The notes beneath the pieces were generated by a model that worked only from the letters and a program-made list of their open reading frames with translations, was not told the origin of the DNA and did no database searches. A program made the position numbers and the translations under genes. Below are positions 1,957-62,323 of a stretch of DNA of 64,000 nucleotides, one piece after another (the stretch's first letter is position 1; each line of letters starts with the position of its first letter). This DNA comes from Haplodiscus bocki (lineage: Eukaryota). The stretch spans positions 63,860,001 through 63,924,000 of the forward strand of contig OZ296649.1 in the NCBI GenBank assembly GCA_965655095.1. Reading direction: 5' to 3'.

Positions 1957-2470
1957 AGTAGTAAGAGTGTGAGCTGATCAGGTGGGGGGGTCGAAGAGCC
2001 TATGTATTAAGATAGGCTAGAGCGAGCCGAGAGGTGCTGAGGGCCGAGAAGGGTCCTCCACCCTAGCCGAGATCTCTCGGGTGACGTACTGCTCGATTCT
2101 GATTGGCTGACGACTTGGATGACGTATTACTTGATTCTGATTGGCTGCCGATAGCCGAGGGTTCTCGGGTGTTCGATTTTGATTGGTTGTCCAGACGAGT
2201 TGTGTCGGTTCAAGATAGGTAATGCATGTATTAAGATAGGCAATAGAATTCGGTAATGTATAAGCATAGGCTATAGTTTGGCTCAATGTTTTAAGATACG
2301 GTATAGTTCAACGTATTAAGATATGGTATAGTTCGGCTCAATGTAAAAAGGAAGGAGTGGGTTCATTTTCGGCACTCTGAGATTTTTTTTCGGGAACTTC
2401 CGCCCACCCGCGCGGATAATTATTACGCCTGCGGATAACTCATTACGTGTGCGGCTTGATGCCTGGAAGT
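1957..2470 (+). repeat. Left terminal (TIR-like) region of the Polinton
   Basis: Begins AGTAGTAAGAG and is GC-richer than its flanks. Internal repeats: GTATTAAGATA-like x4, GATT(C/T)TGATTGG(C/T)TG x3, TAGCCGAG...CTCGGGTG x2. No partner TIR is visible in the window, so its length is unknown. Confidence 0.65.
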
Positions 2471-2498
2471 AAAAAGATTGTGGTCAATTTTAAAAGAG

Positions 2499-2969
2499 TT
2501 AATTAGAATATATAAAAAGGAAAAAACATATTATAAACTGCCCATTTACATACAAAGGTTGAAAAAAATACATGTAAAAACTTATAAAAGAGAGTACATT
2601 GACATTGTGAACCCCTGTTATTTCTTCCTGTTGAAACTTGAATAGATGAAAAGCTGCATATTTTGTATAAAAGCCGCATACATTTGGGTGAGACTGTAGG
2701 GGTGCTGGCATCATCTGCTTGTAGTGCTGGTTATTGTTGTTGGGAAAACTGTACCATTTACATCCAGGAGAGTCTGCAAAATACAATTCATATCGGAAAT
2801 TTTCAATCATGATCCAACGTTCACCCTGCATATTGCTGGGTTGTGTGTTGATAATAGCAAAAGTGTCATTGTTAAGAGTTGGAACATAGACTGAGGGTAA
2901 CAAACCGAGGTACCGAAATTTGAGCAGAGCAATACAATTGATAATTTGTTGCAGAGCAGAATTAGCCAT
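2499..2969 (-). pseudogene. Adenain-like cysteine (maturation) protease, Polinton PRO
   Basis: Motifs IINTQPSNMQGERW (usually N-T-x5-G-x-H-W; His replaced by Arg here), YFADSPG and LQSHPNVCGFY (oxyanion Gln and catalytic Cys). ATG at 2969 lies just after the MCP stop. Confidence 0.88.
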
Positions 2970-2971
2970 TT

Positions 2972-4305
2972 TCACACATTCTTTTCAACAGTACCAAACT
3001 TGTCAACTGCAATCGACGACATTCGTTCACCCAATACAATGAGTTCAGCTACGTTTTAAAGAAGATGAGTAAAATTTAGCTCCAGATTCAGTGGTTCTCC
3101 AACAAGTTTAAGATAATGACAATTTTCAGCAGCGTCTTGCATTGAGGTGAAGTCAAACACCAACACATAGTGATCTTTGAAATCATCAATGGGTATTGAG
3201 GGAATGTCATCCTGAGAGTTCATTGCTTTCATGGTGGTCACATAGAGACAACAATTGTCAGCAGTATCAAGATCTACAATTGGCTGTCCCCCTCTGAGTT
3301 TTCCAATTTGTCTGAGACCAAATTGTTGATACCAGAATGGGTTTTTAGTGAAAAAACCAGTGAAGGCATAGTTTGTGTTCATTGCAATCGCAATCCGACG
3401 AATGGGAGCCTTGTTGAAAATGTTTTCTTGAATGAATTGGTTTTGTGTTGCAGGTATGATGAATGTCTTTGCCAAAGTCTCCAAATATTTGTATTCTACA
3501 GGAGCATAAGCGAGCATGTCCATTCTCTTCTTTTAATAGTCATCCTTCAGAGCAATACGATGAGTGTAAGATGAACAATCCACAATTCCAACACAAACAT
3601 TGGGGTTGTCGCTAATCATGTAAAAATGGGTCTAGCTCTAATCAAACGCAGTCTAAATTTCATATTTGTATAGAGCAGTTCAGAAGTTGAGAAAAAGTGA
3701 ATCCCCAATTTGCCATACAACATGAAACTGTCAGGTCTACTTAGAAATTTCATTCTCCTTGTGAAAAAGGGATCAGGTAGGGGGTTAGTAACATGTTAAG
3801 GATCCTGTTCACAGTCATAGCCGTCACAATGCAAAACTCCCTTGTATTCAGAGACGGCTGCCTTAAGGTTGTTTGAAATGAAAGACTTGTTTGCATAGAG
3901 TACATTGGAATTGTAAATCTGCTGATTGTCAATGTACACTTCAGCATTTGAAAATATTGATTACATTATGTTGTTTACGTAGGTAACTCAAGCCACTTTT
4001 GTTCGTCGTACGTTCCTCTTTCAGTGAAAACAACAGACTCATCTTTGTGGTCACTTTTGTTTTTCTTACTCTAGTATGTATCGCAACCACGTCCCTTGAC
4101 AAGTTTGAGCTTCGAGGCCAAAAAAGACTGTTTCAAATCAACGTAAAAGTTCCGATCCGTTTGACTCTATGCAGTTTTCATCAAGTGAGGTAGTTGAATA
4201 AATTTATTGTTCATGCAAGGACAAGACATCGTCAACAGTTGGGCCCTTCCCTCCAGCATTTCCAGACACTGCCACAAAAGGTTGGTACCGAAAATTGTTC
4301 GACAT
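2972..4305 (-). pseudogene. Major capsid protein (double jelly-roll, Polinton PY/MCP)
   Basis: N-terminus MSNNFRYQPF...TTSLDENCIE..QTDRNFYVDLKQSFL. C-terminal half ENIFNKAPIRRIAIAMNTNYAFTG..KNPFWYQQF and YVLVFDFT..NLELNF match Polinton MCP motifs. About 1.33 kb with stops and frameshifts. Confidence 0.88.
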
Positions 4306-4309
4306 GGTC

Positions 4310-4645
4310 AACGACAAATGTTCGTAACATAGTCTCTTCACGACCGACTGGATTGTTTAGTAGATTTTGTTGGACCATTTCACCTCTGTTTACTACCGCT
4401 ACGCAATTAATTTTTCTGAGTTTGCCTTCCCACACTCTTTGCGGCCGTCTAATAACCTCTTCAATCTCTGGTGCAGCAAATTTCAACATATCAGCACCTA
4501 TGCGTTTTGCAGCTGGGACAAGATATGTAGGCAAAAAGTGAATTGCAGTTCTCCCAACAACTTGTGCAAGAGCCCCTAATCCCCTTCCCCTTTGTCTTCC
4601 AACCGCTCTACAGTATGGAATTTCTACTTGTCTTGAAGCAACCAT
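4310..4645 (-). pseudogene. Small basic virion/core-type protein with QRGRGLG motif
   Basis: MVASRQVEIPYCRAVGRQRGRGLGALAQVVGRTAI...PAAKRIGAD. The Q-R-G-x-G-hydrophobic motif is typical of the small gene between the two capsid genes in animal Polintons. The 3' part is frameshifted. Confidence 0.65.
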
Positions 4646-4663
4646 CTTGTATTATCGTATGTG

Positions 4664-5462
4664 TTAGAAGTGAATGTTGCACTCCTTTCTGAACATCAAA
4701 ACAAGCCGAATGATACCAACAGATACAAAGGGTATTCTTTCACTAGATGTGTCTCTCAGATCAATGTGTATACTATAAAAAGAATTTCTGAGCAAAGGTC
4801 TAAACTGTAGGTTACTGGATGTCTGATAGTTCATGTACTGTCCAGTTGTTATAATGTTTCCCCCCTTAGCTTTGATATTAAGGGAAAGCATCGTAGCAAG
4901 GGAGCTTTTACGTCTCCAACAATGTTGTTCTCAACTAGATCGCTGTAAATCTTCAGCGAATGGATACGAACAATGCCGTAGGCAACTTCGGTTTCTTGAG
5001 GACCTTTTCCTATAATCAGTACCCCAAATTCGTTCCCCATATTGTTACCAAAAATGTAACCCAAGTCGGTGCTACAGAATGCAAGACAAGAGGTATCGTT
5101 TGCAAGCATATTTGCAACTTCTTGCGTTCTGCACGAAACCTTAACTGTTATGCAAGTTTCGTTGTGGTTTTTTCTCCCTTGAATGAGCGTATTCATGACT
5201 TCCACAATATCTGTGAAAGAAGAAGACCAGGTTCCAGATTGTAGGTTATCGTAGATTTTGAAAGTTTCTCGTCAAAAAAATTGACTTTCCTCTCCGTTAT
5301 ATTTTGGTACATTGATGGGTAGGATATTCCTGAAATTGCAACCTCCCAATGCCCCTCCAAGTTTACTCGTTCTGGTAAAAACCTTTTTAAAAAACTGAGT
5401 CTATTTTCTGGAAACACTTCTCCAGAAGCGTTAGAAACCTACTGTATTTTAAACGATTACAT
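4664..5462 (-). pseudogene. Minor capsid protein (penton, single jelly-roll)
   Basis: SNAS.EVFPENRLS...LPERVNLEGHWEVAISGISYP at the N-terminus; IYSDLVENNIVGDVKAPLLRCFP and LQFRPL...SIHIDLRD...IPF...LVLMFRK at the C-terminus. Split over three ORF-track fragments. Confidence 0.87.
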
Positions 5463-5464
5463 TG

Positions 5465-6408
5465 TTAAATGACTTTAATCAGCTCTTTTTGATGAAATTT
5501 GCCTTGAACAATATCGTCCTGCTCATCTTGATTGTGTATGTTGGTGGTTTTCTTGTTGCAATTGATATAATTTCAAAAACTTCTCGACTAAACTGCAGCT
5601 TGTAACCTTTGAGAAAAGGCAAGTCATACGTTGAGATTCGCACTCCATCACCAATTTTGAATGTAGGTTTCTCATATTCTCGTAAAAGTTTACTGTAAAG
5701 AATAGACATAAAATCGCATTTCTTTACGGTATTGGGTCTCAAATCTATCGAACTGTTTCTTCTAGAGTTTAAGGTAGTGATAAACTGAGGTAGTCTGTGT
5801 ATATACTTGTATCCATAATCTTCCATTTAACGGTCAAGAATATTTTTCATTGATCGTAATGTACGTTCAGCAAAAACTGCCTTAGTTTCACTTATAGTAG
5901 AGTAACTTTGTATCCCCTCAGCTGCACAATTTTTTTAAGGGCTCCAGCAAAATCAAATTCGGTCCCCTTGTCAACAAGAAGTCTGGTCGAATTCTTTTTC
6001 GCTGCATTCCTTTTTGTAATCATGGACTAAAAGTCATTCACAGTTTCATGGGAATCTTTTGTTTTCATTCCTTTAGCATTTACAGTTCTACCAAGCAAGT
6101 CTTGACTAACTAGTAAATACTTTACACCGTTAATCTCTTTTGCCAATTTACCAACGTAAGCAAGAGCCATGCACCAAATTTCATTCCTGAATCTAGCAAA
6201 AGCCCTCACTCTCTTGAATTTTGTTGTTGCAAAAGTAAATTCTGTATAAGAAGCCTTTGTATGTAAAAACTGTCTGACCTTTGAAACTGGTAATCTGCTA
6301 GCTTTTGCCAAGTTGCGTACAGAACCCGTAAGCAGCAGCACCTTGCGTATACAGTCTTATTAGCTTCTGACGTTCATACTTTGAAAGGACCCCAGCTTCC
6401 TCTATCAT
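5465..6408 (-). pseudogene. Retroviral-like (rve, DDE) integrase of the Polinton
   Basis: LY...AAYGSV.NL, EIWCMALA (first catalytic Asp replaced by Ala), KYLLVSQD, VDKGTEF, FAERTLRSMK, FKIGDGVRIS...FLKGY..QFSREVFEI. Several frameshifts. Confidence 0.92.
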
Positions 6409-6783
6409 TAACTTTGGCATTCTGGTTGAAAATTCGAGAGGGTGATGTTCCAGCAGCGTCGGGTAAAGTAAAGTAAATGTCTGGAACGTCAGCGTTTTTT
6501 CGACGCAAATGTTGAGTAAAGTCTGAGAATAACACTCCCGTCTCAACACTATCCAAAATAATTGTTTCTGAATTTGAAAACTTGATGCGAGAACAGGATA
6601 AGATCTTGTCTATTAGGGCCTCTGCTTTACCAAACAGTTTTTTGTTAAAGTCTCTGTTTAGAGAATCAATGTGGTACGTGGGAGTTTGTTCAGCTTTATA
6701 CTGTGGAAGTTCCTGCTTTGCAACAGACTGCGTAGTGACACTCTTGTTATACACAGAAGCTGGTACAAAAACAAATTGGTCCA
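6374..6783 (-). CDS. Conserved uncharacterised Polinton protein upstream of integrase (136 aa, frame still open)
   Basis: MDQFVFVP...KAEALIDKIL..SRIKFSNSETIILDSVETGVLFSDFTQHLRRKNADVP resembles the conserved gene usually adjacent to INT. It overlaps the integrase start. Confidence 0.6.
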
Positions 6784-6785
6784 TA

Positions 6786-7061
6786 TCAAAACAAATGATT
6801 AATAACGGGAGGCGTAATGACGGCCAATAGCTGCAATCTTTTTTTTCTGACGACAAAACGTTTCTTCTTTGCTTCCTTGTTGTTCTTTTTAGCGATAATA
6901 ACCAAATTTTGTCTTGAAACTTTATCACGTGATGCCTTTTTAAGGCCTGCAAGTTTCTTTTGAGTCGGTTTACTATGCATTCGCATAGAAACCGGATAAA
7001 ATCTTCTGGTTAAGACTGAAGAAATTGGCTTTTGAATTTGCGGGAAAGCGATTGGAACACA
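6786..7061 (-). pseudogene. Small basic Polinton protein (LCEC-x-x-N motif, hydrophobic C-terminus)
   Basis: Reconstructed across a frameshift as DFIRFLCECIVNRLKRNLQALKRHHVIKFQ...RRNVLSSEK/LQLLAVITPPVINHLF. The pattern is typical of the gene downstream of the ATPase in animal Polintons. Confidence 0.6.
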
Positions 7062-7451
7062 TTGAGAGTAGAGAGCATTTGTTTGTTCGTCGTCCAAAGT
7101 CTTTAATAGCTTTAAACGTTCGGGAATATATATATAATTGAAGGAAAAGATCCACTGTTTGTGCAATAACGTAATCTATCGTCTGTCAAAAGTACAAGTG
7201 TTTTATACCGTTGTTTTTTAACGAATCAATAAATTCAAAGTTTACTCCACGCACAAACTCGAGATTTTCGATTTCTTTCTGCATAACAACATAAAGAGGT
7301 TGAGAATGTTGATAAAAAAGTAAATTTTGTCAAACTTTTGTTGAAATGTTCCATTTTTTAGCCAATTGTAAAGAGGCTGCGATTTTCCTGTTTCGGAAGG
7401 ACCAACCAATGAATTAAAGACACGATTTTTTGTAGCAGTTACCTTGTTCAT
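6973..7451 (-). pseudogene. Genome-packaging ATPase (A32/FtsK-HerA-like), internally deleted
   Basis: Walker A LVGPSETGKS, then KFDKIYFF and EFVRGVNFEFIDSLKNNGIKHLYF, joined directly to C-terminal TDDRLRYCTNSG. The middle of the protein is missing and the 3' end is approximate. Confidence 0.82.
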
Positions 7452-7708
7452 AATTTTGGTGAGGGTAAATTGTATCCTGCCTCACAAAACAAATATCCAA
7501 CCCGAACAGTTGAGTCGTTACAAATTTTCGAAAGGTGAATTCTCCAAAAACAACCAAAGATGATCAAAAAAATCACAAAAATTTGGGACAAAAACACAAT
7601 CAGCGATCTGGAACAGGTTTGTCCCAAAGAGGAGAACGATTTCCTCTCATGATTGTTGTCGTCAAAGACAATTTTACCTAGAAGAATTTTATCTTCTAGA
7701 TCAGTCAT
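7448..7708 (-). CDS. Small predicted membrane protein (86 aa)
   Basis: Hydrophobic run LIVFLSQIFVIFLIIFGCFW and C-terminal GYNLPSPKL. Its stop overlaps the ATPase start (ATGA at 7448-7451). Confidence 0.65.
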   Translation of the reverse strand: MTDLEDKILLGKIVFDDNNHERKSFSSLGQTCSRSLIVFLSQIFVIFLIIFGCFWRIHLSKICNDSTVRVGYLFCEAGYNLPSPKL

Positions 7709-7815
7709 CTGTTTCGTAAGCTCAATTTCTCATAAAGAATGCTATAGAAAAAATCAGGTCGAGTTGAAAGAATTAAATTAGTAGTAAACACAAATACAAA
7801 AAACACGTACAAAAT

Positions 7816-8280
7816 TCACAAATTTAAATGTTGCATAGCCCATTCTCCATACACGTTTGATTTCCTCCCGGCACAGTGAAGCCTTGTTTTGTGTCGGAAA
7901 GAGTAACTAGAGCAGATTCACGAACTGTCCGTTTTTCCTTCTCCATCAAGATGTTAAACTCTTGGGCATCCATAGTCAACCAAGTTTTCTACATTTTATC
8001 CGAGAAGTCTGGTCAACAGTCTACACTCTTCGAGTCTTTTAGCAAACACTTCTAAAATCATTACGTTTATGTCGTTAATGACAGCAAAAACTTTATCAAA
8101 ATCCATCTTTCCACTACTCCATGCAATTCCATGTAGATGACTTGTGTGCCATGTCGTCTGTTTATTAGGTTTAGAAGTCTTCGATGGACTAAATGGAACT
8201 CCTTGTAGAAAACCATCATTAAATAGTCCCAGTTCTTTAAATATGTTTTTCTCAGTTAGCTCTGTATCTAGTACAATCAA
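7816..8280 (-). pseudogene. DEDD/DnaQ-fold nuclease-like protein with Maelstrom-like E...C-H-C signature
   Basis: Single frame with three in-frame stops: IVLDTE...KELG...F.P...WHTSHLHGIAWSSG...FAKRLEEC...NVENLVDYGCP...ICSSYSFRHKTRLHCA...EWAMQHLNL. Confidence 0.55.
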
Positions 8281-8571
8281 AGACTTACTGTTTCAAAAGT
8301 CAACAGAATTGAAAATGGGAGGGTACAAAGATATTTACGTAATGACAGAACAATAGCCCAGTCGCTTGACCAAGCAAGCAAGAATTTGGACCTTGTCCAA
8401 TCATCTTTTGAATCAACCTTTTCATAATCTTGCAACTGCTGAGTTTCTACCAGAGTTGGTGGATTTTTTTTGGGAGAGTCTTTTGGTTTTTTTAAGTTCA
8501 AAAATGTTCAGTCCCAATGTCGTTTTTAGCTTGAGAAAGAAGTTTCTATTATCTCCAATGTTCCAACTCAT
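8277..8571 (-). pseudogene. Small orphan Polinton ORF
   Basis: Fills the gap between two genes in the same orientation (MSWNIGDNRNFL...LKKPKDSPKKNPP...). No recognisable motif. Confidence 0.3.
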
Positions 8572-8624
8572 CCTGAATCGATTAAAAAGAATAAATGATT
8601 AGAGGAAATAGTGGCAATTAATTT

Positions 8625-9205
8625 TTATAAAACATTGGAAATGGGTTGATTAGCAATTACTTCATGATACACCGAATTCATGATGTCAAGAAGATAAACA
8701 AATTCGTGAAGTGTATAGTTGACATACACAATTTGTTGAAATTTTCCCCCTCCTTCTTCCGTCCGAACAGACGAACTAGAGCACAGAGGGTTTTTGGGTT
8801 GTCCACCTTGTATCGCAGCAGTGTTACACAAATCCTTCTCTTTGAGCGATCCACTGCGTCAATCACTTTGTGAACCAGCTTCAGTTGCTTCTCCATGTTT
8901 TTGGACAGTGTAGATTGAAGAACTGGCGGCAAATTTTGCTCTCTGAGAAAGTTGTCTGCTGCAACAACTAGTTGATTTCTTCGTCGAACAAACTGATTGA
9001 AATCAGCTTCTCCCATTGTAAAGTTTTGTCTCGGTCAAAATTCTGCATCTTTAATTTCTCTCTTGAACACTTTTAGTTTAATGTATAGTTAGTTGGAGTC
9101 ATTTTTGGTCCAAGAAAAACGTCCCAAGCTGTCTTGACACTTGCGAAAGTCCACATAGTGAGTGCAAATTTGCTTGTCCAAGATTGGAAAAGTGTTATAA
9201 GCCAT
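8625..9205 (-). pseudogene. Putative tandem PC4-like ssDNA-binding protein
   Basis: ATG at 9205. Two units each end in strand-strand-helix patterns: LYIKLKVFKR...QNFTMGEADFNQF and LVRLFGRK...YVNYTLHEFVYL. Two stops and one frameshift. Confidence 0.45.
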
Positions 9206-9326
9206 CGTTCGTCCAAAAAATTGCTTTTAGTTGAAAGAAGCAAGTTGATTTAGGGAGTGAAACTTGAACATGGATTTGAGAGCTGTAAGTCGTTGCTTCT
9301 GTACGCGTCAGTGTCACGTTATACTT

Positions 9327-9336
9327 CCTTATAAGG
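9327..9336. promoter_or_regulatory. CArG box (CCTTATAAGG) in a divergent intergenic region
   Basis: Perfect CC(A/T)6GG palindrome between the minus-strand gene starting at 9205 and the plus-strand gene starting at ~9468. Confidence 0.4.
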
Positions 9337-9467
9337 AAACGCTTCCTTTTTGGGGGCGATAAATTTCCATGTATTATCATTCTTTCTTGTTTGGTAGCTT
9401 TGTACAACTAACAATAAAAAATTGTCTTTTCAGATTCACTTGTTAAAATTACGACAACTTTTTTGGG

Positions 9468-9979
9468 ATGGCAGTTGTAAAGTTACAAGTGATTCCCAGC
9501 TTTTTTGCTGAGTATTCAGAAAAATGTTTGTTTATTTCAGCAAACACGTACAAAAAAATATTGTGCGCAACGACTGTTCTGTATCTTCTCACAATGACAA
9601 GGCTTGTTTGGTGACTAACTGCAAATTTCACTTTATACTACATGGAAACTTTGAAGAGCTACTAAAGAATTTGGATACATTTTGCTTCACCTATCAACAC
9701 GTGGACTGTCTTTATACACTATTCAAGTATCGATTCAGTAGAAAAATTATTGCAAAGTGTGGAAAAGTGTTTGATAACGTGCAACAAGCAGTTGACTTTA
9801 ATAACAGAAACAAGGGAATGAACAGAATGCCGAGCATTGCAAAAAAGAGGCTCTTGCGGAAAAAGTTCAAAAAGTATTTATTCAGTTCCTTTCAAAAAAC
9901 AAAAACAACGAGGCCAGTGGTTCAATGTTTGCAAAAAGAAATGAAAAAGTCAAAAAAACTAAACTTGAAATGGAACTAA
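9468..9979 (+). pseudogene. Orphan plus-strand Polinton ORF (Cys/His-containing)
   Basis: ATG at 9468 (MAVVKLQVIP...), frameshifting into the 151-aa ORF 9524-9979. It is the only plus-strand gene in the accessory block. Confidence 0.4.
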
Positions 9980-10159
9980 TAAAAATTGTTGATTGTTTTC
10001 TTGATGGTCGTGGTAATTATGAAAGTAAATCAGTACCTTTAAAAAAATCTTTATAACAAACAAAAGTTTTTGTTAAAGTTAACAAGAGTAATGAGTTTTC
10101 CCGAAGAATTCAAAATGCTAGTTGAAAATGAAATTCCGAAGCAAAAAATTTCAAGTTTT

Positions 10160-10810
10160 GTCAGATTCTAAAACAAAATTTCTACAACGTGTCAGATTTT
10201 AAATTAATTTTTTCACAACGCGTCAGATTTTGAATTTAAGACTTTAAAACGCGTCAGATTTCGAAGAAAAATATATTTTTTAAAAGTATGATATTGACGA
10301 AAAAATTAGTTTTAAAAAACACGAATTCGAAGAAAAATCTCTTTTTAAAATGCAGCTTTCGGAAAAAAAAAGATTTTAAATTGCAGTGTTTGCGGAAAAA
10401 TTTTGCACACAAAAAAATCAGGCTTTGATTCCATTTAGCAAGTAAAATAGAATGCACAAAATTTGACGAGAAATTTTTTTCTAAAGAGCATGACTTTGAG
10501 TGAAAAAGTTGTTGTAAAACGCATGATTTTCATTTAAAAATTTATCGTCTTGTCAGATTTTGAAGTGAAATGTTTTCGCCTTGTCACGTTTCCAATTAAC
10601 GTTTTTTCGTCTAGTCAGATTTTGAAACAAAATTTTTTTCGCCTTGTCAGATTTTGAATTAAATTCATTTCGTCTGGTCACATTTTGAGTAAAATTTTTT
10701 CGCCTTGTCAGATTTTATATTAAAATTTCTTCCCCTTGTCAGATTTCGTATCAAGTTTTTTAAAACGTATAAGCTTTGGAATCAAAAAGTTTACAACGCG
10801 TCAGATTTTC
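10160..10810. repeat. 31-bp minisatellite inside the Polinton
   Basis: Core GTCAGATTTT(GAA) or variants at 10160, 10191, 10222, 10253, 10552, 10583, 10614, 10646, 10677, 10707, 10738 and 10800, with more degenerate units between. About 21 units. Confidence 0.85.
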
Positions 10811-10825
10811 AAGAGGAACAATTTA

Positions 10826-11085
10826 CCTAGGTCCACCACATGTACCTTTCATATCGATTTCCTCCATATAATCATGTTCAGTTACAGGCTACAATAGCTT
10901 CGCCAACTACATAATAGTATTCGCCACCGTTCAAGCAATACTTCTTGTACTCTTTTCGCAAGGACTTTCACTTTTGATTTTGCTATGGTGTCCCATTTTT
11001 TCTCTGAATTTACTTGATATATGCAAAAACCAGTTGCTGCTAATCGTAAAGCTGCAACAAATAATACAGTTTTCTTCTCACACAT
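10826..11085 (-). pseudogene. Orphan Polinton ORF
   Basis: MCEKKTVLFVAALRLAATGFCIYQ... continues past one stop to ~10826. No recognisable motif. Confidence 0.3.
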
Positions 11086-11167
11086 GTGTGACTAGTTTTT
11101 GAAAAAGGATATGAAAAATTGAGACAAACTAATTATAATTCATATCAAAACACAAACACGGTAATAC

Positions 11168-11829
11168 TTATCTAAACAAGTTTCTATAAACATAATCGGG
11201 TACATTTTCTAATCTTGCTCCAAAAGCGCGAAATCTGTGCCGCCTGGGAGGTTCCATGGGTCCGACAGGCACGCGGGTTAACGGCGCAGGAGGAGATTTC
11301 TCCTTGTCTTCCTCTTCGTCCAACACCATTGGGGTTTCAAATGATCCCCCATCCCCCCATCGATAAATCATCAAATGTAGTTGGAGAAAAGGGAGTGTCT
11401 ATGACTGGTCTGAACACTGCGTCCATGTCCAATTGAGAATTTTCCCAGTTGAACACTCTGTCTTCGATACTTGTTTGCTGCTAGTGTGCAAGACTTGAGC
11501 CCCACACTGGAGAGTACTTCGTCTCTCATCTCTATTGTTCCTTCTTGGTTCTGAGTGATTGAGACCCGTGCCAGATGTTTATCCAAGAAATCTTGCCTTT
11601 GAGACAACAGCAAGTTCCACGTAGCTAGGAGTTTTTCTTGTGAGCTGATTGTTATATTTTGAGCGAGATCATTTACTGTAATAGTACCGAAGTCGGGACC
11701 AAAACTGAGAGTCCACTGGATTCCGTCGTTGGAGACTGAGAAGATAATCATTTTCTGTAAGTCGACTGTAAGTTGATAAAATTTTACTGGTTCACAGTAG
11801 ATTGAAATTGAATAAAAATGGTCTGACAA
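11168..11829 (-). pseudogene. Orphan Polinton ORF with acidic/Pro-rich C-terminus
   Basis: ORFs 11371-11829 and 11168-11374 look like frameshifted halves of one gene (…ETPMVLDEEEDKEKSPPAP…). Confidence 0.4.
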
Positions 11830-11874
11830 ATGAATTTGTCGCTCAAATCATGAGCCATTAGGAAACGGACAAGT

Positions 11875-12583
11875 TTATTCCATATTTGGACTCATTTTAG
11901 CCTTTCTGGTGCGGGTGGCTGTGATTGGCGGGAAATTGTTCTCCTTCGTTTTGTCTTCATATGTCACAATTGCTCCTAAAAATGTCACACTTGTAAGCAA
12001 CAGAAAATCGATTCCTGTAGAGATGCTTGATTTTGCGGTAACCCAGGTTGAAAATTGATGTAAGAATAATTGATTACCGTAATGTTCAAACTTTTTGACA
12101 GAAAGACGCAAACCTTGTTCTTTTCAAACCGGAACGATAATCTAATTTGTCTGTTTAAATTCTCTCAGCTATATCCTTGTAACACTGAGTGTACAGTTCG
12201 TCTTTTGCTTTTGTAAATCCAATCTTAAATTTAAGTCTGGGTAATGGAATCTGCGATACTTTGTTGGTTTGATGGAATGCTCTGAGAAATTCACCCAAAT
12301 TGTCGAGTCGAGACTCAGTTTCCTTTTTGGAATTGCTGACTTTCTCCTTCAGAATGAATTGCTGCTGCAACTTTGAATCGCAAAAATGAAACAAGTTCAA
12401 TGCAAAAGACTTTTTGTTGGATCCTTTGCTAACTTGAAATATTCGGTGGTGGGACTGTGAAATGTCCGAAACTTTGTGACAAAAGTAATTATCCACGTCT
12501 GTTTCGTCCAAAAAATCTTCCGGTTTTTCTTCGTATGCTGAATAAAATTTGCACAAACTGGAAATTTGCTTTTTGGTAGACAT
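11875..12583 (-). pseudogene. Second putative tandem PC4-like protein
   Basis: MSTKKQISS...FALNLFHFCD..QQQFILKEKVSNSKKE...RQIRLSFRFEKNK..SVKKFEHYGNQ. Same two-unit organisation as 8625-9205; frameshifted. Confidence 0.35.
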
Positions 12584-12699
12584 TAACTGATTATAAATGA
12601 AAACAAATTGTAAAATGAAAAAAAAGAGTATTCTAGCGGTAAAAGTTTTGCTCACTTTGCTGGTGAACACTAAAATATTCGAGAACAATCCAATGAACA

Positions 12700-13250
12700 G
12701 TGATATAAGCTTTAAACCACTGCGCTAATTGTGTGTATATATAAAAATCATAATGTACTCCTTTTATGGGTCTCATTAACACGTGAGAATAAGATACTGT
12801 TGTTTTACTTGATTACTTTTTGCAGTCAGAGCAACTATTTAGCAGGGAAACTTGTTCCACTTGATTAAATTTCTCAGACAGTCTGTCTACTTGTCAAGGG
12901 GAATTGTTCCACTTGAGTTAATTTCTCAGACAGTGTGTCTACTTATCGGGGTACTTGTTTACTTTTCTCAGACAAACTGTCGCCGTGTCGGAGGATTTAA
13001 GGCTACTTAATTACGTTGTTAGACGTTACGTCTAAACATAAAACGAGTGACTGACAGCTCCTTTTATGGTTGGCATTTCCTTTTATGGGAGGTTTCCTTT
13101 TATGGTCTTTCTGTATATGCTACAAGGTAAGAACCATTTAATTGTTACAATTTAACCACCATTATTTTTCTTGCATTGCCAGAGTCAAGTTGGTTAAAAC
13201 TTTACCTTTTCAGATTATTCTGCTTTGGAGGTATTGTTAAAAATCTCTAA
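12700..13250. promoter_or_regulatory. Divergent promoter region between the structural/accessory block and pPolB
   Basis: Four exact CCTTTTATGG copies (12760, 13060, 13079, 13096), three TTTCTCAGACA repeats (~12871, 12922, 12964) and a TATATAAAA tract near 12738. Confidence 0.55.
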
Positions 13251-13255
13251 CAAGG

Positions 13256-14380
13256 CCTGCTTTGGATCGAAATGTTAAAGTTATTTGTGGAAATTGTGGA
13301 ACTTTAGTAACGAAGAAAAATCTATCTCAACACAAATCGAGCTGCAGTGGTGGAACATTGGATTATCCAAAATTTCCCAATTTCTCTACTAAACGGAGAG
13401 ATGATTTAAATTATATTATTTGCCAAAAAACACAGAGTTCCAAGACCTTCGATAACATACAAGTGTAAACTATGTCACGGCTTCTATGCTTTACGTCAAC
13501 ACAAAAGCACTCAACATGGAACACCAATTGGATTCGGAGCGAGCAATATTGATGTTGAAGACATGGTGGGAGAAGTTACGAGAGGAGTGTTTGAGAGAAG
13601 AATTGGAATCTTGCAAACACTTTTTGACAGAAACTGAAATGGAGAATGAAAAACACAGTCTTTAACTTTGCCATGTCATCCTTCGACATGTCTTTACTCA
13701 ACGATAAACTGGATTATGTATTCAAAGAACTGAAATGTGCTGCAAAAATTAACCTTGCATTTAGATTCGTTCTGAAAAACATTGAGGATGGAATGTGTAG
13801 ATACTTTTACGCTCGCGAGAACAATACTAATATGGAAAGGTCGAAACTTGTGTGACTGACCTGAAAAACATAATGCAGAAAATGGATATTGCTGGTCTTT
13901 GTACCCGAGAAAGAACGAATACAGAAAGGAAGTTTTACAAACTTAAAAATTTAAACAATTTTTGCTTCTTTACTCAAATATGTAACCATGGGTTGTCAAG
14001 ATACAGTCTCACCTGAACCACTTTTGTTAGAAAACCATATTGTGCCTTACTTTTGAGGGAAATACGAGACAACCCTACAATGACAGTCTCTGTTTGTCTA
14101 GAGCATTTGGTCTACATTTGCATGGTAACGAAAACTGGAGGAGAAGACTTCGAAAAAATTCAACCTTTTTCCTCAATAACAGTGAGGAGGGAGACCTTTC
14201 AAAAATTCACTGTGTTCGTTTGAATGACATTACAAAAGTTGAAGACTTCTTGCAGCTCAACATATTCCTATATGAAATTGATTTTGTAGATGGAGAACTG
14301 ATTGGTGGGCTCTGTCGAAGAAGTATTCAAAAGTATGAAAAAAGTGTCAAGCTTTTACGCTACAACAATCACATTTGCCA
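13256..14380 (+). pseudogene. N-terminal part of protein-primed DNA polymerase B (zinc fingers, terminal-protein-like region, vOTU-like domain), truncated
   Basis: CGNC..HKSSC, a degenerate second finger and CKLC...HKSTQH; then KINLAFRFVLKNIEDGMCRYFYA; then YNDSLCL.RA and LLRYNNHIC (D-x-x-C...H pattern). Position and orientation fit pPolB. No exonuclease or polymerase motifs are present because of the truncation. Confidence 0.7.
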
Positions 14381-14872
14381 TGGGATCTTAGGTCACAGAA
14401 GTGCAACAAAGTAACACTTGCCCTCTGAAATAAAATCTGGGTTTTCAGTTAATTTCGCCAATTGTTTTCGCCAATTAATTTCAAACAAACCGCGTTTTTT
14501 GCACGGAAACTGGCTCAAAAAACGTTAAGCTAACTTTATCATAGGACTGGGCTCAATTGAATGGTTTGCCATCAAAGAACCTAAGAACATTAGCATTCGC
14601 AAGTTGACTGTACAGACAGGACTCAAAATTTTAGACTTCGGCGTCTGAAAGATCTGAAAATTGAATTTTTTTTTGCCAATAACTCGCCGAAAAAAAATGG
14701 GGGGCCGAAAATTTGGAATATCTCGGATCGCAAACCCTTCGTACTGTTTTTACAACAGTTCGATAAACCCGGCCAACTATTGAAAAGAAAATTAGATTCA
14801 AAGAGTTGAAACACAGAGGGATGTCACGGGCGTGGATAAAAAACGAAATCATTTTGACAAGTCTTGTGCGAA
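14379..14872 (+). repeat. Dispersed repeat, copy 1 (abuts the pPolB breakpoint)
   Basis: Shares GCAACAAAGTAA.ACTTGCCCTCTGAAA and AGAAAATTAGATT..AAGAGTTGAAAC.CAGAGGGATG...ATCATTTTGAC with 15868-16135. Confidence 0.7.
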
Positions 14873-15867
14873 CAGAATTACATGGTCGCTGAAGTGCTTA
14901 CCGCAAGGCTCGCGAAAGAACTCAAACGCTTGAATACGTTGTTGATCACATGTCTATGCAATGCCAGAGAGCATGTACCAAATTCCGGAGAGATTAGGAA
15001 GAGAACAACCAGGAGTTAACGGCGGAGGTTTAAGATAACTATCCTTTTTTCAAACATAATTTAGAAAGAAAAATGCTTATCTCAGAAGTCATTGAAAGCC
15101 GGCCGTTGTTTGGCAAATATCATTTCAGAGCAACAAAGTTCCAGACGTTGAAAAGTATGCCTTTAAAAAGTGCGAATCTGGAAACAAAAATTCTTCCAAG
15201 AAAGCCGTGTTTTCTCGCTAAAAATTATCAAAAAACTCCATTGAAAGATGTTTAACGCAACCCCAAGGTCACGTGGGCACTCAGAAGATGCTGAGGGAAT
15301 TTACGAAACACACGCTTGAGGCAATTTTTCTGTTGATGGAAGCCACAGTAAATTTATCGCACAGGGCAAAAAGGATTGAAAAAAAATTACTGTACACATG
15401 GAGTACTTCGGCCACACCACCTATCTACAACCGAGCGAACTCTTAAAAGCCGGCGACTGCTTCTCCAGGCAATCCGATGGATGTCACCAAGCCCATTTTA
15501 GTTTCATTAATTGTACAGCAGAATGAAAATTGTTTGGAAGAGTTGACAAGTTCTAAAGAACTCTTTGTTTTGTCAGCTTTTGGCAAAAAATCCATGAGAA
15601 AATTCCACTCGGAGTCAAAACTTGCATCAATACTCACTGTTGTACACGTTGCTTAATCTGCATCTCAATTTAAGTGATACGCGTCCTTCTGAGGCACGGT
15701 TAGCGCGCTAAACTTTAGATAATGCAAAAATTTATTTGAAAACTCAAGTTTTTTCAGAAAATTTTCGGACAAACTTTTGTTGAAAAATCAGAAAAACTTT
15801 TGGCTAAAAACTAAATGCAACAGACGCTTCATAGTTCATAGTCTAACTAGCGTTGGGATCCCATACA

Positions 15868-16135
15868 TGGGAAAATAGTCCAAAGAAAAGCAACAAAGTA
15901 AGACTTGCCCTCTGAAAAAATCTCGGTTTCCAATTGTTTTCGACAGAAACTCTCCGGCGGAAATTTTTTGGCTGCCGATAGTTTGGAATATGATAGGTCG
16001 TGAACCCGTCGTAGTTTTTATATTAAAATCGGATGAATCCGAGGTGGCGAGAAAATTAGATTTGAAGAGTTGAAACGCAGAGGGATGCCATGGACGAGAA
16101 AAAACGATATCATTTTGACGTGTCCCCGTGCGAAA
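15868..16135 (+). repeat. Dispersed repeat, copy 2 (internally shorter)
   Basis: Direct similarity to 14379-14872. Confidence 0.7.
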
Positions 16136-17419
16136 GCGAAAAGGTTCCGCTTCGCTCGCCTAAAAAAGCAAAAGCAAAGACTAAAAAGTGGCACGAAAAA
16201 ATACAGGGAGCTGTAACACTAGGCAAATAAAGTTCCATCTTCCCCGCAAAAAAAATGTGACTTCCGTAGTGACCGATATTTCGCAGTACAAGACAAAAAA
16301 AAAGACTCAGATTCTGTCTGAAAAATCAGAGTCCCAAAAATTTCAAAAAAACCCTTCAAACCCTTCTAGTAAAGTGGAAAGGCAAAGAGCCTCCCAATAA
16401 TTAGAGAATCACCAGAAAATTAGAGGATTTTATGAAACACAAAAACTGATTGAAAACTGCCGTTCTTCACTTTCAAATTTGCTAGCATCTCCATATGCAA
16501 GTATCGATGTGAAATCAACTCTTGGAGCAAACGTTCAACTGCTGCTCAGTTGGATGAAAATCTGTTGAGAGCAACTGACAAAAACTTTTTCTTTTTCCGA
16601 GAAGAGATTTCTGATGAGAGCCTCATTCTGCAAACTTATTGTTTCTCCAAATCTATGCATTGAGAAATCAGTTTATTTCGTCAGTTGGTCGGTCATAATT
16701 CAGCGGCAAATTATCGTTTGCCAGAAAGAAACTAGCAGATAACCCTTCACTTAAATTGAGAACTTCTGCACACTTTTCCGTGATTTCGGAATTTGGAGGC
16801 AACCCATACTGGCAATCCATCTATTTTGGTACGCTCTTTTTGAAAACATTCAATTTAGTTCGTTGTCCGGATGATGCTTTTTTACACATTTCATAGGAAA
16901 ACTTAAGAGATCAAAAACAAATAGATTTTGGACTTTGTGAACTTTCATGTTGAAAAAACAATGAAATACGCAATAAACTGCACCCCTCCCAAAAATAAAT
17001 CTAACCATATCCTTCTGTTGTTTGAGGTTTGAGGATTGGCAACAAGCTATTGTAGCTAGTGCCACCGTATACTATGACGCCAAAATGAACGATTCAATGT
17101 GGGAGTTAGAGTACACTGGAAGCAAATTCTTGGATAAGTATCGTCGAAATTTATAGGGAATATTTAATTATGCAGCTACTTTTTTTTAACTCTGTTGATT
17201 TGATTTTTAAAGTTAAGCACTTTATCCAGTTGCTTTCCCAGATAGTTGAATACAATTTCAATGCCAAGAAAAAATTGTTAAACTTCCTTGGGATATTTCA
17301 TTTTATATTATCGAAAAAAAAAGAATTTTTTGAGCAATTTGTGGTAAGTTATTCCTGTTTAACCAGCGTCTCAGGTTGTTCAACTCATCGGTAATCATCG
17401 CCTGATTATTGCCACTGAC

Positions 17420-17900
17420 AAAAATAGGAGTGGTATCATCAGCGAACAAAAGGGGTTCAAAATAAACGCAAATGCTTTGAAGCCTTCTAATGTGAGTAGC
17501 AAAAAGAAGAGGTCAAAAAACATGGAAAAAAGCGGTAAGATGCACTGAAAAAATGTCCTTGATTAACCTAAGCCCAGTACCCGCGATTAATCAATTAGCT
17601 TTTAAAGTCACTGACTTTGTCTGGCAATCATTTTATGTGAAATTTTTCAAATAAAACGTGATCGTTTAGGTTAGAAGATGTCTTCAAATCCAAGAAGAAA
17701 GTAAGGCAAGAAATATCAAACCAGAAAGTCAAACTTTTTGCCTGATTTTTCTTGTGGCAACTGTAGTACGTTTCGGTTTGAAACCGAACTGGTCTTCGTA
17801 ATGGATATCAAACTGCTCCAAGAACTCAAAACACGGGAAAATTTTGACGTCACTGGAATTTTGTTTGGTGAGGCCGATAACGAAACAAGCAGGTAGCACC
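17420..17900 (-). mobile_element. Non-LTR retrotransposon (CR1/L2-like) reverse-transcriptase relic
   Basis: Ordered degenerate motifs on the minus strand: YRP, QFGFKPKRTT, FFLDLK...DH, PLLF and PLLFADDT (17434-17446). Confidence 0.75.
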
Positions 17901-18049
17901 AAGGCTCAAATTTATTACCATCTTGGTAATGTCAGGAATGTTGTCAAAACCAAATGAAAGCTTGGGTTTCAACATTTAGAAAATGCTTTGTATATAAGTA
18001 CGAAATACTGAACAAGACGGCCGGTCACCACTGGCATATTTTCCGCCCT

Positions 18050-18345
18050 AACTTTGTTGATTATACCTTTTAGAAGGATGAAAGCGTTTTACCGAAAGAA
18101 AATTATCTTATGCAAAATAAAGATAAACTTTCCAAATTCAAATCATTTCTGATTTCCTCAAAAAATCTTTAATTCAAGCGAAAAAAAAATTTGAAGCAAT
18201 TTCAATTGATAAGCATTCTACAGCAAATTTAGGGACTTTACTACATTTGAAAAAAAATTTTCTGTAAAAAATAATTTCTTTAAAAAAATCTAAATTTTGA
18301 GAATTCTTAGTAATTCAGTCCCATTGTACGGAAAATTTGATCTAA
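18050..18345 (+). repeat. Dispersed AT-rich repeat related to 38550-39420
   Basis: Shared GCATTCTAC..AAATTT and TTTTGAGAA.T.TTA.TA.T..AGT..CATT.TAC blocks. Confidence 0.55.
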
Positions 18346-29620: not shown

Positions 29621-32600
29621 GTTGCTATGGATTGCAGAAACTTTAAATGTAAGAGCCACGTGATCGATTTCATTGTTATAAAAGACAAAAAATACGAATG
29701 TCAGAAGGATTTTCTAAGAGTCTTGGAAAAACCATCAGTGTGATTATACAAACAGTAATCACAAACAGAGGCCTTTTTGGGTGACAGGGGTTTAAACCTT
29801 AAAAAAGTAGATCGCTCTAATTCGTGCCGCTCTAAATAAGTTCCCACAAATTTAGACTCATGAGACTGAAAATCAATCTCTGAAACACTCGAATCCGATC
29901 TCATCGCCAAAGCGATTTTTGATCTTATTCCTAGGTCTCATTCTCACATTTTTTTTTCATTTTGCTTGTATGCATGAATGCATGCATCCAAATAACTTTC
30001 TGAAAAAGCACAAAAGAATCAGACGTGCAATATCGAAAAATCACTATTCATTAAACGTTATTCTTTGGGATACATTTTTGTGTCATTTGAATTTACATGA
30101 TTATGCAGAATACTTATAGTTGGAAATTAATGCTCTCAATTGCAAGCTAAGGACTTCAAACCGCACGTATTTATTAAGTTTTGTCTATTATTGTTGGTCA
30201 AATGTTCAAAATAATTCATGCTTTAAAATTTTCCTTTATTTACATTGTTTTTCCTATCTTTAATCTGAGCTCGATAAATAAATTGAATTCCAAGTCGTAA
30301 AATTTTTGCGTTAATTATACTTGTAGTTGTCAATAAAGTGGTGCTGTCAAGCTTCGAATTGTTGGAAACGAACAATTGTAAATTATTATTTGAGCTTGTA
30401 ATATCTACAGTAGTGATTTTAATTAATGCGACAACTTGAATGCATAACTCAACTCTCAGCACGAATAACTTCGGGAATAATCATTTTAGACAAAAGTACC
30501 AGAAACAAAATATTCTTAGAATTTTCAGGAGATTATAATGGTTTTGTTTGAAAAATTTCCAACGAATAGAGCAAAAACTAGAAAATCGTTTTTGGCCAAA
30601 CTTTCCATTCTTTTGAGAATTTCGTAACTTTAAAAAAATTAATAATGGAATTTGATTTCTTCAATAGATGCCTTTGATGTTTCTGCAACGGCTGATATTA
30701 TCTGTCGGTGGAAGCGTTTTCAAAAACTACTTGAAAACTTATCTTGAATCTATTAAATTTGAAAATCAATGTGCTAAAATAGGATGGTAAAATTATACTT
30801 TTATTTTTTTTGCAATTTCTTCTGAAATTCAAAGTTGTGAAAGAAGTGTTAAATATAAAAGCTCGGGGAAAATGATGTAATTTGTTTCCTGTTATCTTGT
30901 GTCATTGTCAAAATTTCTTACGAAAACTGCCAAAATTAGTCGTTATTCGCAATGCTTGCATAGTTTATTTACTCAACTTTGGGATGCAATTTTCTACCCT
31001 TTTGAAGTACTTGTTTTCGCAAATAAAACAACCATGTCGTAGCCCTTTTAATGAGCTTTGATCACTAAATGAGTTTACTCTGATCTCCTAATATTTACTT
31101 CTTCACTTGGGATTTTGTAAAGTTTATCAAAATTGCTGAGTCGCATTAATTAAAATCACTACTGTAGATTTAAAAATTATGCAGTTTGATAATCATGCAA
31201 TTCGCCGCACCTATTTGGAATCGAAAATTTTGTGTAACAAAAGAGTGTGTAATTAATGTGTCAGTTCAACGGCGTCTCGCATTAATTAAACTAAATGCGC
31301 AAATTCATATAGAAATATAATATTATGTAATACTCGGACCTAGTAAAAATTCGGACCATAGTTTGAGAAGATTCAAGCGAAACTTCTCAGGTTGAATTAA
31401 ACAAGCCGGCGACTGCGCAAACTCGGCACGGTTCATCAATGTTGTGAAATAGAAAGACATTTTTGAGTTTTCAGAATTAAAGCATCAGAATGAAGAACAA
31501 CTTTACGAAAGTTACACTCGTTTTCCGCGAAACTTATGACATTGAATGAAAATATAATTATTCATTCGCAGTGTGCGACAAAAATTAGGCAAACTCAAAG
31601 TTTCTGCTCGTCGAATGTTCCTCGAAAATTTGATTTCCAAAATGGCGGGCAATATAGAGACACTCCTTTCGCTGGTTCCAACTTTTCCCCCGAAAACACC
31701 AATATCAAAAATTCGTGATACCCCCTTGCATATACCAGACAAATTTTTCGAAAGGCAAACATCAAATATCCAATATTCTGAACAACTGAGTTTCCTAGGC
31801 ACTGTCAAATGTGCCTAAGAGTAACCGCATGAAGTATTTGACAGGTGCAATAATGTGAAATATTTTTTTCTGAGAGAAATCAGTATCGGTAAACTTTTTA
31901 AAAACAAACCAAAACGTTCAAAAACAACAAAAAATCCTCCTCAGAAAATTTTAACCAGTACGTGAAGCTTTGCTTCCGGTCATCCTTGGTTTGATGGAAA
32001 TAAAAAGGGCATCACTATAACTTCTTGCATATAATCAAAGGTAATTGACACTCCCATTTAGCATAATTTTTATTGAAATATCTTTGATGGAAGATTTTGC
32101 GATTCTCAAAAATTTTCGCAACTTTTTGACACCTATTCTTTTTACTTCAAACCGGCAATTCGTCGAAAATTTCTTTGGCTATCTACAGATAGTCACCTGA
32201 ACGAAATCAAGTCATTCAAATTAAAGTTAAATTTAACGAGCTTCCAATTATATAATTTGCCAGCTTTTCTTGCTGTTCCGTTAAAAGGTATATGAGCTCA
32301 AATCTCCCTTTCCATTGAAACTCCCCTTAACGCCTTTATATCGACAAGGACAGCCCTTAACGCCTCTAAAGTTTCGAGTTACCGGCGTTAACGTTGATAT
32401 ACCAGACAGAAAACGCGCCTGGGAAAACATCTAAACTTCTAAGAATCACAAAATAATGGCCATTCAGAAGTTTTCAATGAGGGTTTGAAGCTTTCAAAAC
32501 ACTTTTTTTTTGAAACTTTGGGAAGCCAGTGTCAGCGACAACCAGCCAGGAACTGTAAAAAGTTGAAAAGGAAATACCTTTTTTTTCCAGATCGAGTTCT

Positions 32601-35650: not shown

Positions 35651-35850
35651 NNNNNNNNNNNNNNNNNNNNNNNNNNNNNNNNNNNNNNNNNNNNNNNNNN
35701 NNNNNNNNNNNNNNNNNNNNNNNNNNNNNNNNNNNNNNNNNNNNNNNNNNNNNNNNNNNNNNNNNNNNNNNNNNNNNNNNNNNNNNNNNNNNNNNNNNNN
35801 NNNNNNNNNNNNNNNNNNNNNNNNNNNNNNNNNNNNNNNNNNNNNNNNNN
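35651..35850. other. Assembly gap (200 N)
   Basis: Run of N characters. Confidence 1.
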
Positions 35851-49599: not shown

Positions 49600-49760
49600 C
49601 ATTAAGTACAGAAATCAATGGTGGAATTGATGTTTGCAAAAACTCTTTGAAAACTAAATTCAAAACAGTAGTTTTGTTTTTAACCGTTTGCAAAAGTTGA
49701 TCAAAATTTTCGTATTTGGTCGAAAGATATGCCGGTGCTAGCCGGCCGTCTTGTTTTATT
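49600..49760 (+). repeat. Dispersed repeat end motif (also 36720-36860, inverted at ~18011-18050)
   Basis: Shared TGCAAAAGTTGATCAA...ATATGCCGGT.CTAGCCGGCCGTCTTGTTT. Confidence 0.7.
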
Positions 49761-61800: not shown

Positions 61801-62323
61801 GTACCATAGGTTCCAGTGAGGAATCAAACCAAAGCTACAGGACAGTTGGTGGTTAAAAAGATGACCACCGAACGGCATGATTGCGCAGTAATGGATGTAT
61901 TGGTGTGCTCTTTAATTGAACTGAGAAGTTGCTTTGAATTAAAATGATCATTTCGGCGTTGCTCCATTGCCCGAGGTTGATTGGGTGATTTCTTGCAGCG
62001 AACGTGTCCAATCTTTGAAATTAGAGTCTACATGGCGTATAGGCAATTCTTTGTTGCATTTCTTAGCTAAAAAATCGAGATCGCCACTGGCTCTTAGCTC
62101 AAAAGGAAGGAACGATACATGGTCTTCGTTGTATTTCTCTTCAAACTGCTCAACTTTTCGTTCTTGAGCTCTGGAAGTTGCACGACCCTGCTTTTCAACC
62201 ACTTGAGAAACGAAAGGCTAAACTGAAAAGCCTATTAAATTTTTGATTTCAAATCAAAAAGTAGCTATTCAAGGAAATTAAAACTCATCGTTAATCACAG
62301 TCGGCTTAAATTCGATTTGACTA

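Follow-up and report, generated by a model that had tools for sequence, protein, structure and literature searches.

A 64,000-nucleotide stretch of Haplodiscus bocki DNA (assembly GCA_965655095.1, contig OZ296649.1, positions 63,860,001 to 63,924,000; hereafter the window) carries at positions 1957-14381 what is, judged from its sequence features, almost certainly the left ~12.4 kb of a decayed, integrated Polinton/Maverick (adintovirus-like) copy. What we consider very probable as a whole is a copy killed by mutation, with about its left three-quarters preserved, from a high-copy Polinton family that carries a gene made of a leader and a single epidermal growth factor (EGF)-like module. The locus is an ordinary Polinton fossil whose accessory genes mostly have precedents; the EGF-like gene is what may be distinctive, and it may bear on whether animal Polintons manipulate their hosts as real viruses.

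The window is AT-rich (GC ~36%) and contains no long open reading frames (ORFs) outside this region. The terminal motifs looked for were (AGT)2 and (AG)3, and AGTAGT was found at 1957, precisely at the start of the element, followed by subterminal repeats that fill its first ~500 bp. AGTAGT is the commonest end motif of vertebrate Mavericks (PMC8097293). Inward of the repeats, eight core-type ORFs and one hydrophobic ORF run head-to-tail on the minus strand from 2499 to 7708, reproducing in number, size and order the modules atp-pm-pz and int-mcp-pw-Mcp-pro, with the names pm, pz and mcp partly positional. Seven further ORF remnants and a 31-bp minisatellite occupy 7822-12583, and a plus-strand gene begins at ~13253 (Table 1). 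Four genes, searched with their stops read as X or through natural relatives (cited below by P numbers), returned the expected family as their top, though sub-threshold, match. The integrase gave Pfam rve (E 0.018) and NCBIfam IS3 transposase (E 0.013), each ranked first and each below cut-off; relative P0041, 79-89% identical over the protease region, gave Pfam Peptidase_C5 at E 0.05, likewise short of the cut-off; and one of 17 polymerase relatives gave DNA_pol_B_2 (PF03175) at a sub-threshold E of 0.0016; the fourth match, to an endonuclease PHROG, is described below. The penton candidate lies one gene upstream of the major capsid gene, which is the arrangement described in PMC4028283. It is the agreement of these individually weak hits with the gene order and the end motif that leads us to the Polinton assignment.

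An earlier note on this stretch, written from the letters alone, had described a fossil genome of this kind with a full morphogenesis module packed head-to-tail on the minus strand. The identity and the dead state are supported by the end motif, the gene order, the concordant sub-threshold matches and the eight stops of the capsid gene, and the block from protease to membrane protein is indeed seen at 2499-7708; "full" says too much, since polymerase and right arm are lacking and the ATPase seems shortened. The ATPase has probably suffered an internal deletion, which we presume from the length that we take as usual for its family; the protease copy lacks one position of what we take to be the catalytic triad; and the PW/cupiennin-like name of the ORF at 4310..4645 is our assumption from its position. 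Among the profiles that the note had proposed as a check, those for adenain (0.05) and rve (0.018) matched below threshold, while double jelly-roll capsid and A32 ATPase profiles did not match.

Of the polymerase gene (pPolB), no more than ~385 N-terminal codons are present, distributed over seven segments in three frames and broken off after the His motif. The divergent zinc-finger polymerase noted earlier is thus borne out for its zinc-finger N-terminus on the plus strand, but not for a polymerase region; neither an exonuclease nor a polymerase region was found anywhere in the window. Similarity to the polymerase relatives ends at 14381, where an unrelated repeat begins (14379-14460). This unclassified repeat occurs in two copies, at 14379-14872 and 15866-16134, with segments 79-82% identical, and the start of the first coincides exactly with the break in the polymerase. 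Window-wide comparisons led us to reject that the polymerase continues, or that a right arm survives, at some other place in the window, which also holds no inverted partner of the left end and no second copy of the element. The remaining piece carries patterns that we take to be the Cys and His motifs of a vOTU-like domain. Among the best 120 of 473 polymerase relatives, ranked by similarity to the decayed N-terminal query, the Cys motif occurs in 82 and the His motif in 93. The OTU-like domain gave no profile or fold match, and the polymerase pieces gave only weak zinc-finger matches in PDB. A vOTU domain after the terminal-protein domain is the pPolB architecture described in PMC11071308. 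The spacer that separates pPolB from its divergent neighbour is a probable bidirectional promoter.

Decay extends over the copy. Alignment to the natural relative P0002 splits the capsid gene into four segments, with eight in-frame stops; with these stops, the frame changes and the cut polymerase, the copy has neither open core ORFs nor a complete pPolB. The observed/expected CpG ratio is 0.65-0.69 in the coding parts, compared with 0.91 for the distal part of the window and 1.17 for the terminal 500 bp, a depletion consistent with methylation-driven decay. A plus-strand ORF of 183 codons (1370-1955; no Pfam family) ends just before the left end, the six bases preceding the element being AATGAG. 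This ORF resembles what we take to be the gag region of a long terminal repeat retroelement, and the Polinton may therefore have inserted into another transposon. A 136-codon plus-strand ORF at 58452-58862, which presumably resembles the start of a retroelement gag, is not alignable to it; a relationship between the ORFs at 1373 and 58452 was rejected (E 3.7).

The element belongs to a large family. With the capsid fragment as query, 1051 candidates yielded 894 relatives, of which the best 120 are 78-88% identical, and two capsid clusters of 530 and 307 members have 450-amino-acid representatives. Within the best 120, relatives continue into protease DNA in 13 cases and into the QRGxG gene in three, reproducing the local order and repeating the pw-Mcp-pro linkage. 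The polymerase fragment retrieved its 473 relatives among 524 candidates; 81 of the best 120 extend at least 80 residues beyond the window's break, and the 25 longest extensions show an ExoI-like motif in 20 and an ExoII-like motif in 21. One polymerase relative, P0179, has an insertion whose top match is an endonuclease PHROG at a sub-threshold E of 0.13, its end segment resembling what we presume to be a Vsr-type insertion. Endonuclease-type (Vsr-type) insertions are described for some pPolBs in 10.1101/2023.08.22.554363. A genome scan and phage tblastn found no relatives in prokaryotic genomes or phages, none of 78 pattern matches to the capsid in prokaryotic genomes being confirmed. Mavericks make up 4.5% of one acoel assembly (PMC6451197), a figure that shows only that such abundance occurs in animals.

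The suggestion that intact relatives exist elsewhere is borne out for the capsid, which is an end-to-end ORF in 39 of the best 120 of the 894 relatives, but not for the polymerase: A/B/C motifs or a length above 974 amino acids occur in none of the best 120 of 473, and for that reason an autonomous copy is not in evidence. The family may by now be non-autonomous or extinct, its capsid ORFs surviving by recency or chance, its complete polymerase gone and virions no longer formed. The missing full-length polymerase argues for this, as do four natural proteins (P0246, P0250, P0251 and P0373) that join parts lying kilobases apart in the window copy, suggesting many internally deleted members, and the degraded state of 96% of vertebrate Maverick loci (PMC8097293). 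Yet the polymerase view comes from the best 120 of 473 matches, ranked against a decayed N-terminal query, long ORFs may be split by assembly errors, and the two large capsid clusters keep 450-amino-acid representatives; we regard extinction as a serious contender that falls short of being the favoured account.

Within this high-copy family the EGF-like gene occupies a short stretch that had been counted among several orphans. The window copy is broken by frame changes, stops and lost cysteines, its leader lying in one frame and the decayed module in another. A search with the module returned two candidates, both of them relatives (P0394 and P0395; 72-76% identical, E ~1e-11), and a third, P0383, links the gene at 11168-11751 to a cysteine motif that aligns to 10952-10845. 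Against PDB, P0395 gave 26 matches at E<=1, 15 of them at E<0.001, the best being EGF itself at 6.5e-6; 25 are ErbB ligands or chimeras of them (EGF, betacellulin, amphiregulin, epiregulin, TGF-alpha, neuregulin, HB-EGF and epigen) and one is an EGF-like ant peptide. All 11 matches of P0394 are EGF-family ligands too (best E 0.0042), and in both sets (26/26 and 11/11) every match is of ligand type, with no Notch, fibrillin or coagulation-type modules among them. The leaders are hydrophobic throughout (KD15 2.0-2.5). We judge that this is probably a selected gene of the family, most likely a captured host growth-factor module predicted to be a small secreted ligand of the ErbB/EGFR type.

Several observations count against such a reading. 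Only three relatives of the gene were retrieved, and the six-cysteine EGF spacing is complete in one of them, P0395, and incomplete in P0394, P0383 and the window copy; no Pfam EGF family appeared at E<=1 for any of the four sequences; and the gene is intronless and ends right after the module, without the hallmarks of cellular ligands. Cellular ErbB ligands have an intron between Cys4 and Cys5 and a module placed just before a transmembrane segment (PMC1618406). Because it is intronless and ends after the module, we do not class the gene as a canonical cellular ligand. The small number of relatives, two of the three with a partly missing cysteine pattern, would also fit passive cargo: a piece of host sequence taken up a single time and since propagated with the element, without ever having had a function. 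We consider this unlikely, since the ORF is compact, intronless and stand-alone, with leader and module together; since P0383 and P0395, ~50% and ~74% identical over the module, both carry the tail of the same upstream gene as the window copy; and since the leader of P0394 has diverged but stayed hydrophobic (KD15 2.5).

Somewhat less likely still is that the module functions other than as a secreted agonist, either membrane-tethered through an uncleaved signal anchor, as an attachment or entry factor, or as a receptor decoy or antagonist. The leader could serve as an anchor, the arginine before the sixth cysteine is missing from P0395, the sole sequence with full spacing, and there is no transmembrane segment at the C-terminus, such as cellular ErbB ligands typically have (PMC1618406). 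On the other hand, that arginine is present in three of the four sequences, and the PDB matches are ligand-type without exception. Moreover, some poxvirus growth factors are leader-plus-EGF proteins of ~80-85 amino acids that lack an anchor. Returning to the secreted ligand, its strongest form, in which the lineage would encode a functional EGFR/ErbB agonist (a virokine), acquired independently of the poxviruses and driving proliferation of neighbouring cells to aid infection or integration, is a tentative proposal, distinctly more doubtful than the selection of the gene as such.

No EGF or growth-factor gene of Polintons or adintoviruses was found in the literature searched, a scope outside which lay the Starrett supplement slides and tables, bioRxiv supplements, Repbase and subscription papers. 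Neither is mentioned in the readable part of the PMC8502044 supplement or in the available parts of 10.1101/2023.10.06.561300, 10.1101/2024.03.25.586562 and 10.64898/2026.10.13.758929, and PMC1618406 lists viral growth factors only from poxviruses. This absence carries a caveat, because genes of the MAEL and PC4 types, likewise unfound by search, proved to be known under other labels.

The Polinton assignment itself has to be held against a series of negative results. None of the 38 window fragments searched reached the Pfam cut-off, for which reason most of the genes are named from motifs, order and weak matches, and wrong families appeared at E 0.016-0.09; no core gene passed a curated cut-off, wrong families reaching similar E-values. 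NCBIfam and PHROGs, searched with 19 sequences, gave nothing significant; in these two and Pfam, the penton ORF (4664..5450) and the ATPase remnant found no profile match and the membrane ORF (7448..7708) no family above noise. Protease and integrase pieces matched nothing in PDB, the C-terminal integrase fragment, which bears on a Beta-class chromodomain but is decayed, matched nothing in Pfam, and the ORFs in the Cupiennin and GasderminX slots are present without Pfam support. Rfam gave 0 matches, and a bacterial promoter scan, a method not applicable here, stayed at chance level. The capsid found no match in Pfam, in sequence and profile searches of PDB or by phage tblastn; Polinton capsids need HHpred-level sensitivity for detection (PMC4028283). 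A model of the P0002 capsid, built from a 38-sequence alignment of close relatives, reached a predicted local distance difference test (pLDDT) score of 36, too poor to use, and fold searches with it (Foldseek, VIA) were not significant (best Z 4.1; viral capsid-type chains Z 3.1-3.7), the missing jelly-roll match being uninformative because the model is too poor. Finally, neither a right terminal repeat nor a target-site duplication nor ACTACT+AATGAG was found in the 64-kb window, the copy ending at 14379 without paired ends. A non-Polinton origin, with unrelated repeats brought together by chance or an endogenous DNA virus of another class, would suit core matches that all lie below cut-off, an unconfirmed capsid fold and the absent paired ends, but the concordant top matches, the diagnostic order, the end motif and the linkage of neighbouring genes in independent relatives make it very improbable.

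Among the remaining accessory genes of the Polinton, the clearest is the one at 8625..9205. An accessory query (7799-11398) retrieved 898 proteins, from the best 150 of which overlaps were counted: 144 overlap 8628-9205, the whole gene being spanned by seven. Sixty-three of the 144, picked for coverage, were aligned, and P0306 was folded (pLDDT 69). With this model, Foldseek ranks 1-10 were Pur-alpha (nine) and Whirly (one), with a best E of 9.2e-4, and VIA returned repeats I-II of Pur-alpha (Z 9.3, root-mean-square deviation 4.3, 143 aligned) as the sole chain at Z>=8 among 48,161. The ~195-residue chain thus has a two-repeat Pur fold, its second repeat showing three clear strands at lower confidence and the identity to Pur-alpha being ~10%. 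The type I PC4-like fold includes Pur-alpha, Whirly and MRP1/2 (PMC7549692). A viral library search with a model of the family's PC4-like protein placed MOSUB of Bos-associated insect adintovirus at rank 18 (E 0.015, probability 0.99), nothing reaching E<=0.001; in Atlas, P0241 alone gave a PC4 lead (score 0.79, with 31% of members carrying the family). An alignment of the two repeats to each other by profile was rejected (probability 0.5). The protein is most likely the single-stranded DNA-binding protein of the element, predicted from its modelled fold to coat displaced strands, and offers a concrete candidate for that role. Upstream of the gene, P0262 and P0257 carry a tandem repeat (~13 codons per unit in P0262), of which a degenerate trace lies at ~9230-9400 of the window.

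The count of about seven further genes and an internal minisatellite given in the earlier note agrees with the seven ORF remnants and the 31-bp repeat at 10113-10814, whereas several of its names do not hold. Of its two PC4-like proteins, that at 8625..9205 is upheld by structure (Z 9.3), but the ORF at 11970..12583 was not detected with a profile of the first family (iE 4.4; probability 0.09), and the two as detectable paralogues were rejected by these comparisons. The proposed Maelstrom-like nuclease found no match, as a decayed copy, in Pfam, NCBIfam, PHROGs, PDB or Atlas; peptidase M1 leads for it in Atlas, with scores <0.9, were discarded as noise. As the mark of a poorly described lineage, the accessory set finds little support: MAEL, MOSUB, SSDBP and SLATT genes are already labelled on the adintovirus maps of PMC8502044 (Fig. 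S2, panel A), and these labels together with the MOSUB match led us to reject the novelty of a MAEL plus PC4-like content.

Table 1. Features of the Polinton copy and its immediate boundary (window positions; strand given for genes and ORFs).
Feature	Position	Strand	Remarks
Left terminus and presumed left terminal repeat	1957..2460		(AGT)2 start; 38-nt and 25-30-nt subterminal repeats; inner edge approximate
Adenain-like maturation protease (PRO) remnant	2499..2969	-	sub-threshold Peptidase_C5 in relative P0041
Major capsid protein (PY/hexon) remnant	2972..4308	-	4 segments, 8 stops; 894 relatives
PW/cupiennin-like QRGxG protein	4310..4645	-	between penton and capsid; QRGRGLG, then amphipathic stretch
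Minor capsid (PX/penton) remnant	4664..5450	-	three frames; by position, one gene upstream of the major capsid protein
rve-type DDE integrase remnant	5460..6395	-	motifs; sub-threshold profile matches
Small conserved gene, PZ position (GasderminX slot)	6374..6784	-	open frame; name by position, no profile support
Small basic gene, PM position	6786..6990	-	name by position only; boundaries approximate
Packaging ATPase remnant	6970..7451	-	Walker A GPSETGKS; only ~160 codons
Small membrane protein	7448..7708	-	one strong hydrophobic segment; KD19 maximum 2.85
Candidate MAEL/DEDD-like nuclease remnant	7822..8300	-	DxE close to the N-terminus and a Cys/His cluster towards the C-terminal end; unconfirmed
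Small basic orphan ORF remnant	8320..8571	-	5/150 relatives overlap
Tandem PC4/Pur-alpha-fold protein (MOSUB-like)	8625..9205	-	2 stops, 1 frame change; fold from a relative's model
Cys/His-containing orphan ORF remnant	9512..10056	+	two frames; no Pfam family; 6/150 relatives overlap
31-bp minisatellite	10113..10814		two blocks with a 33-bp block between; relative P0337 overlaps, adjoining + ORF
EGF-like gene	10827..11085	-	~85 codons; hydrophobic N-terminal leader and one EGF module, no C-terminal anchor
Orphan gene	11168..11751	-	two frames; acidic/Pro-rich C-terminal part; directly upstream of EGF-like gene; relatives P0384, P0378, P0383
Orphan ORF remnant	11970..12583	-	second PC4-like gene of the earlier note, unconfirmed; 3' boundary approximate
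Non-coding spacer between divergent genes	12725..13250		52-bp and 17-bp tandem repeats
pPolB N-terminal third	13253..14381	+	C2H2/C2HC zinc fingers, presumed terminal-protein domain, vOTU-like Cys and His motifs
Start of unrelated repeat, truncates element	14379..14460		second copy 15866-15945; 79% identity, E 2e-13

Elsewhere in the window, two elements resemble miniature inverted-repeat transposable elements. One (62321-63555) is bounded by 53-nt inverted ends (83%) and contains CAGCGCTG-rich repeats, both tandem and inverted; the other (30396-31176) has a 37-nt inverted repeat pair (92%), 707 nt apart. A dispersed repeat occurs in three copies, direct and inverted (36714-36899, 49610-49756 and 17971-18051), and the far left flank (40-420) shows 71-78% similarity, in inverted orientation, to distal repeats at 56980-57050 and 59656-59987. 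A short minus-strand ORF with a FADD motif (17303-17512), lacking a Pfam match, is presumably a reverse-transcriptase fragment of a long interspersed nuclear element. A run of 200 N at 35651-35850 marks an assembly gap.

From what is known of the family, an intact member would integrate by means of its rve integrase and replicate by protein priming with the TP-vOTU-pPolB polyprotein (TP, terminal protein), the tandem PC4/Pur protein coating the single strands displaced during strand-displacement replication. ATPase, penton and adenain would serve to package its DNA in a jelly-roll capsid. Secreted as a small ligand, the EGF-like protein would stimulate host EGFR-type signalling, favouring dividing target cells. 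Paracrine signalling is of use to an agent that passes from cell to cell, and the virokine reading, if true, would therefore be new, indirect evidence for infectious animal Polintons; a single host genome would then also contain growth-factor genes by the hundred, borne by such elements. If selected and active, the gene would parallel, in an integrating DNA virus, the growth factors of poxviruses.

In its (AGT)2 end and its atp-pm-pz and int-mcp-pw-Mcp-pro order, the element agrees with vertebrate Mavericks/Polintons, and in having both modules on one strand with those of Xenopus tropicalis (PMC8097293). In contrast to vertebrate Mavericks, whose first module includes pPolB and whose accessory regions lie on either side of the core (PMC8097293), the window element carries pPolB on the opposite strand, with an accessory block of ~5.5 kb between pPolB and the ATPase. 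Adintoviruses (PMC8502044) resemble it in the OTU-type motifs of the PolB N-terminus and in an integrase, an adenain and an FtsK-type ATPase, all three putative in the window element. In their Beta (Cupiennin) module a small protein separates penton from hexon, as a candidate does here; no EGF-like label appears in what is readable of Fig. S2 of that paper. Gene order and the weak PF03175 score lean towards the Beta class, while the MAEL and MOSUB labels come from the Alpha panel. Like Pur-alpha, Whirly and MRP1/2 (PMC7549692), the protein at 8625..9205 combines two beta-rich/helix repeats in one chain, though at ~10% identity to Pur-alpha, and its nucleic-acid binding is a prediction. The EGF-like gene extends the comparison to the poxviruses, which are a different class of virus; the window gene sits in an integrated element of a probably invertebrate host, and the likeness is drawn from layout and ligand type. 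Its organization resembles the short leader-plus-EGF layout of the leporipox growth factors. Poxvirus growth factors, among them those of vaccinia, myxoma and Shope fibroma viruses (PMC1618406), are likewise virus-encoded single EGF modules of the ErbB-ligand type.

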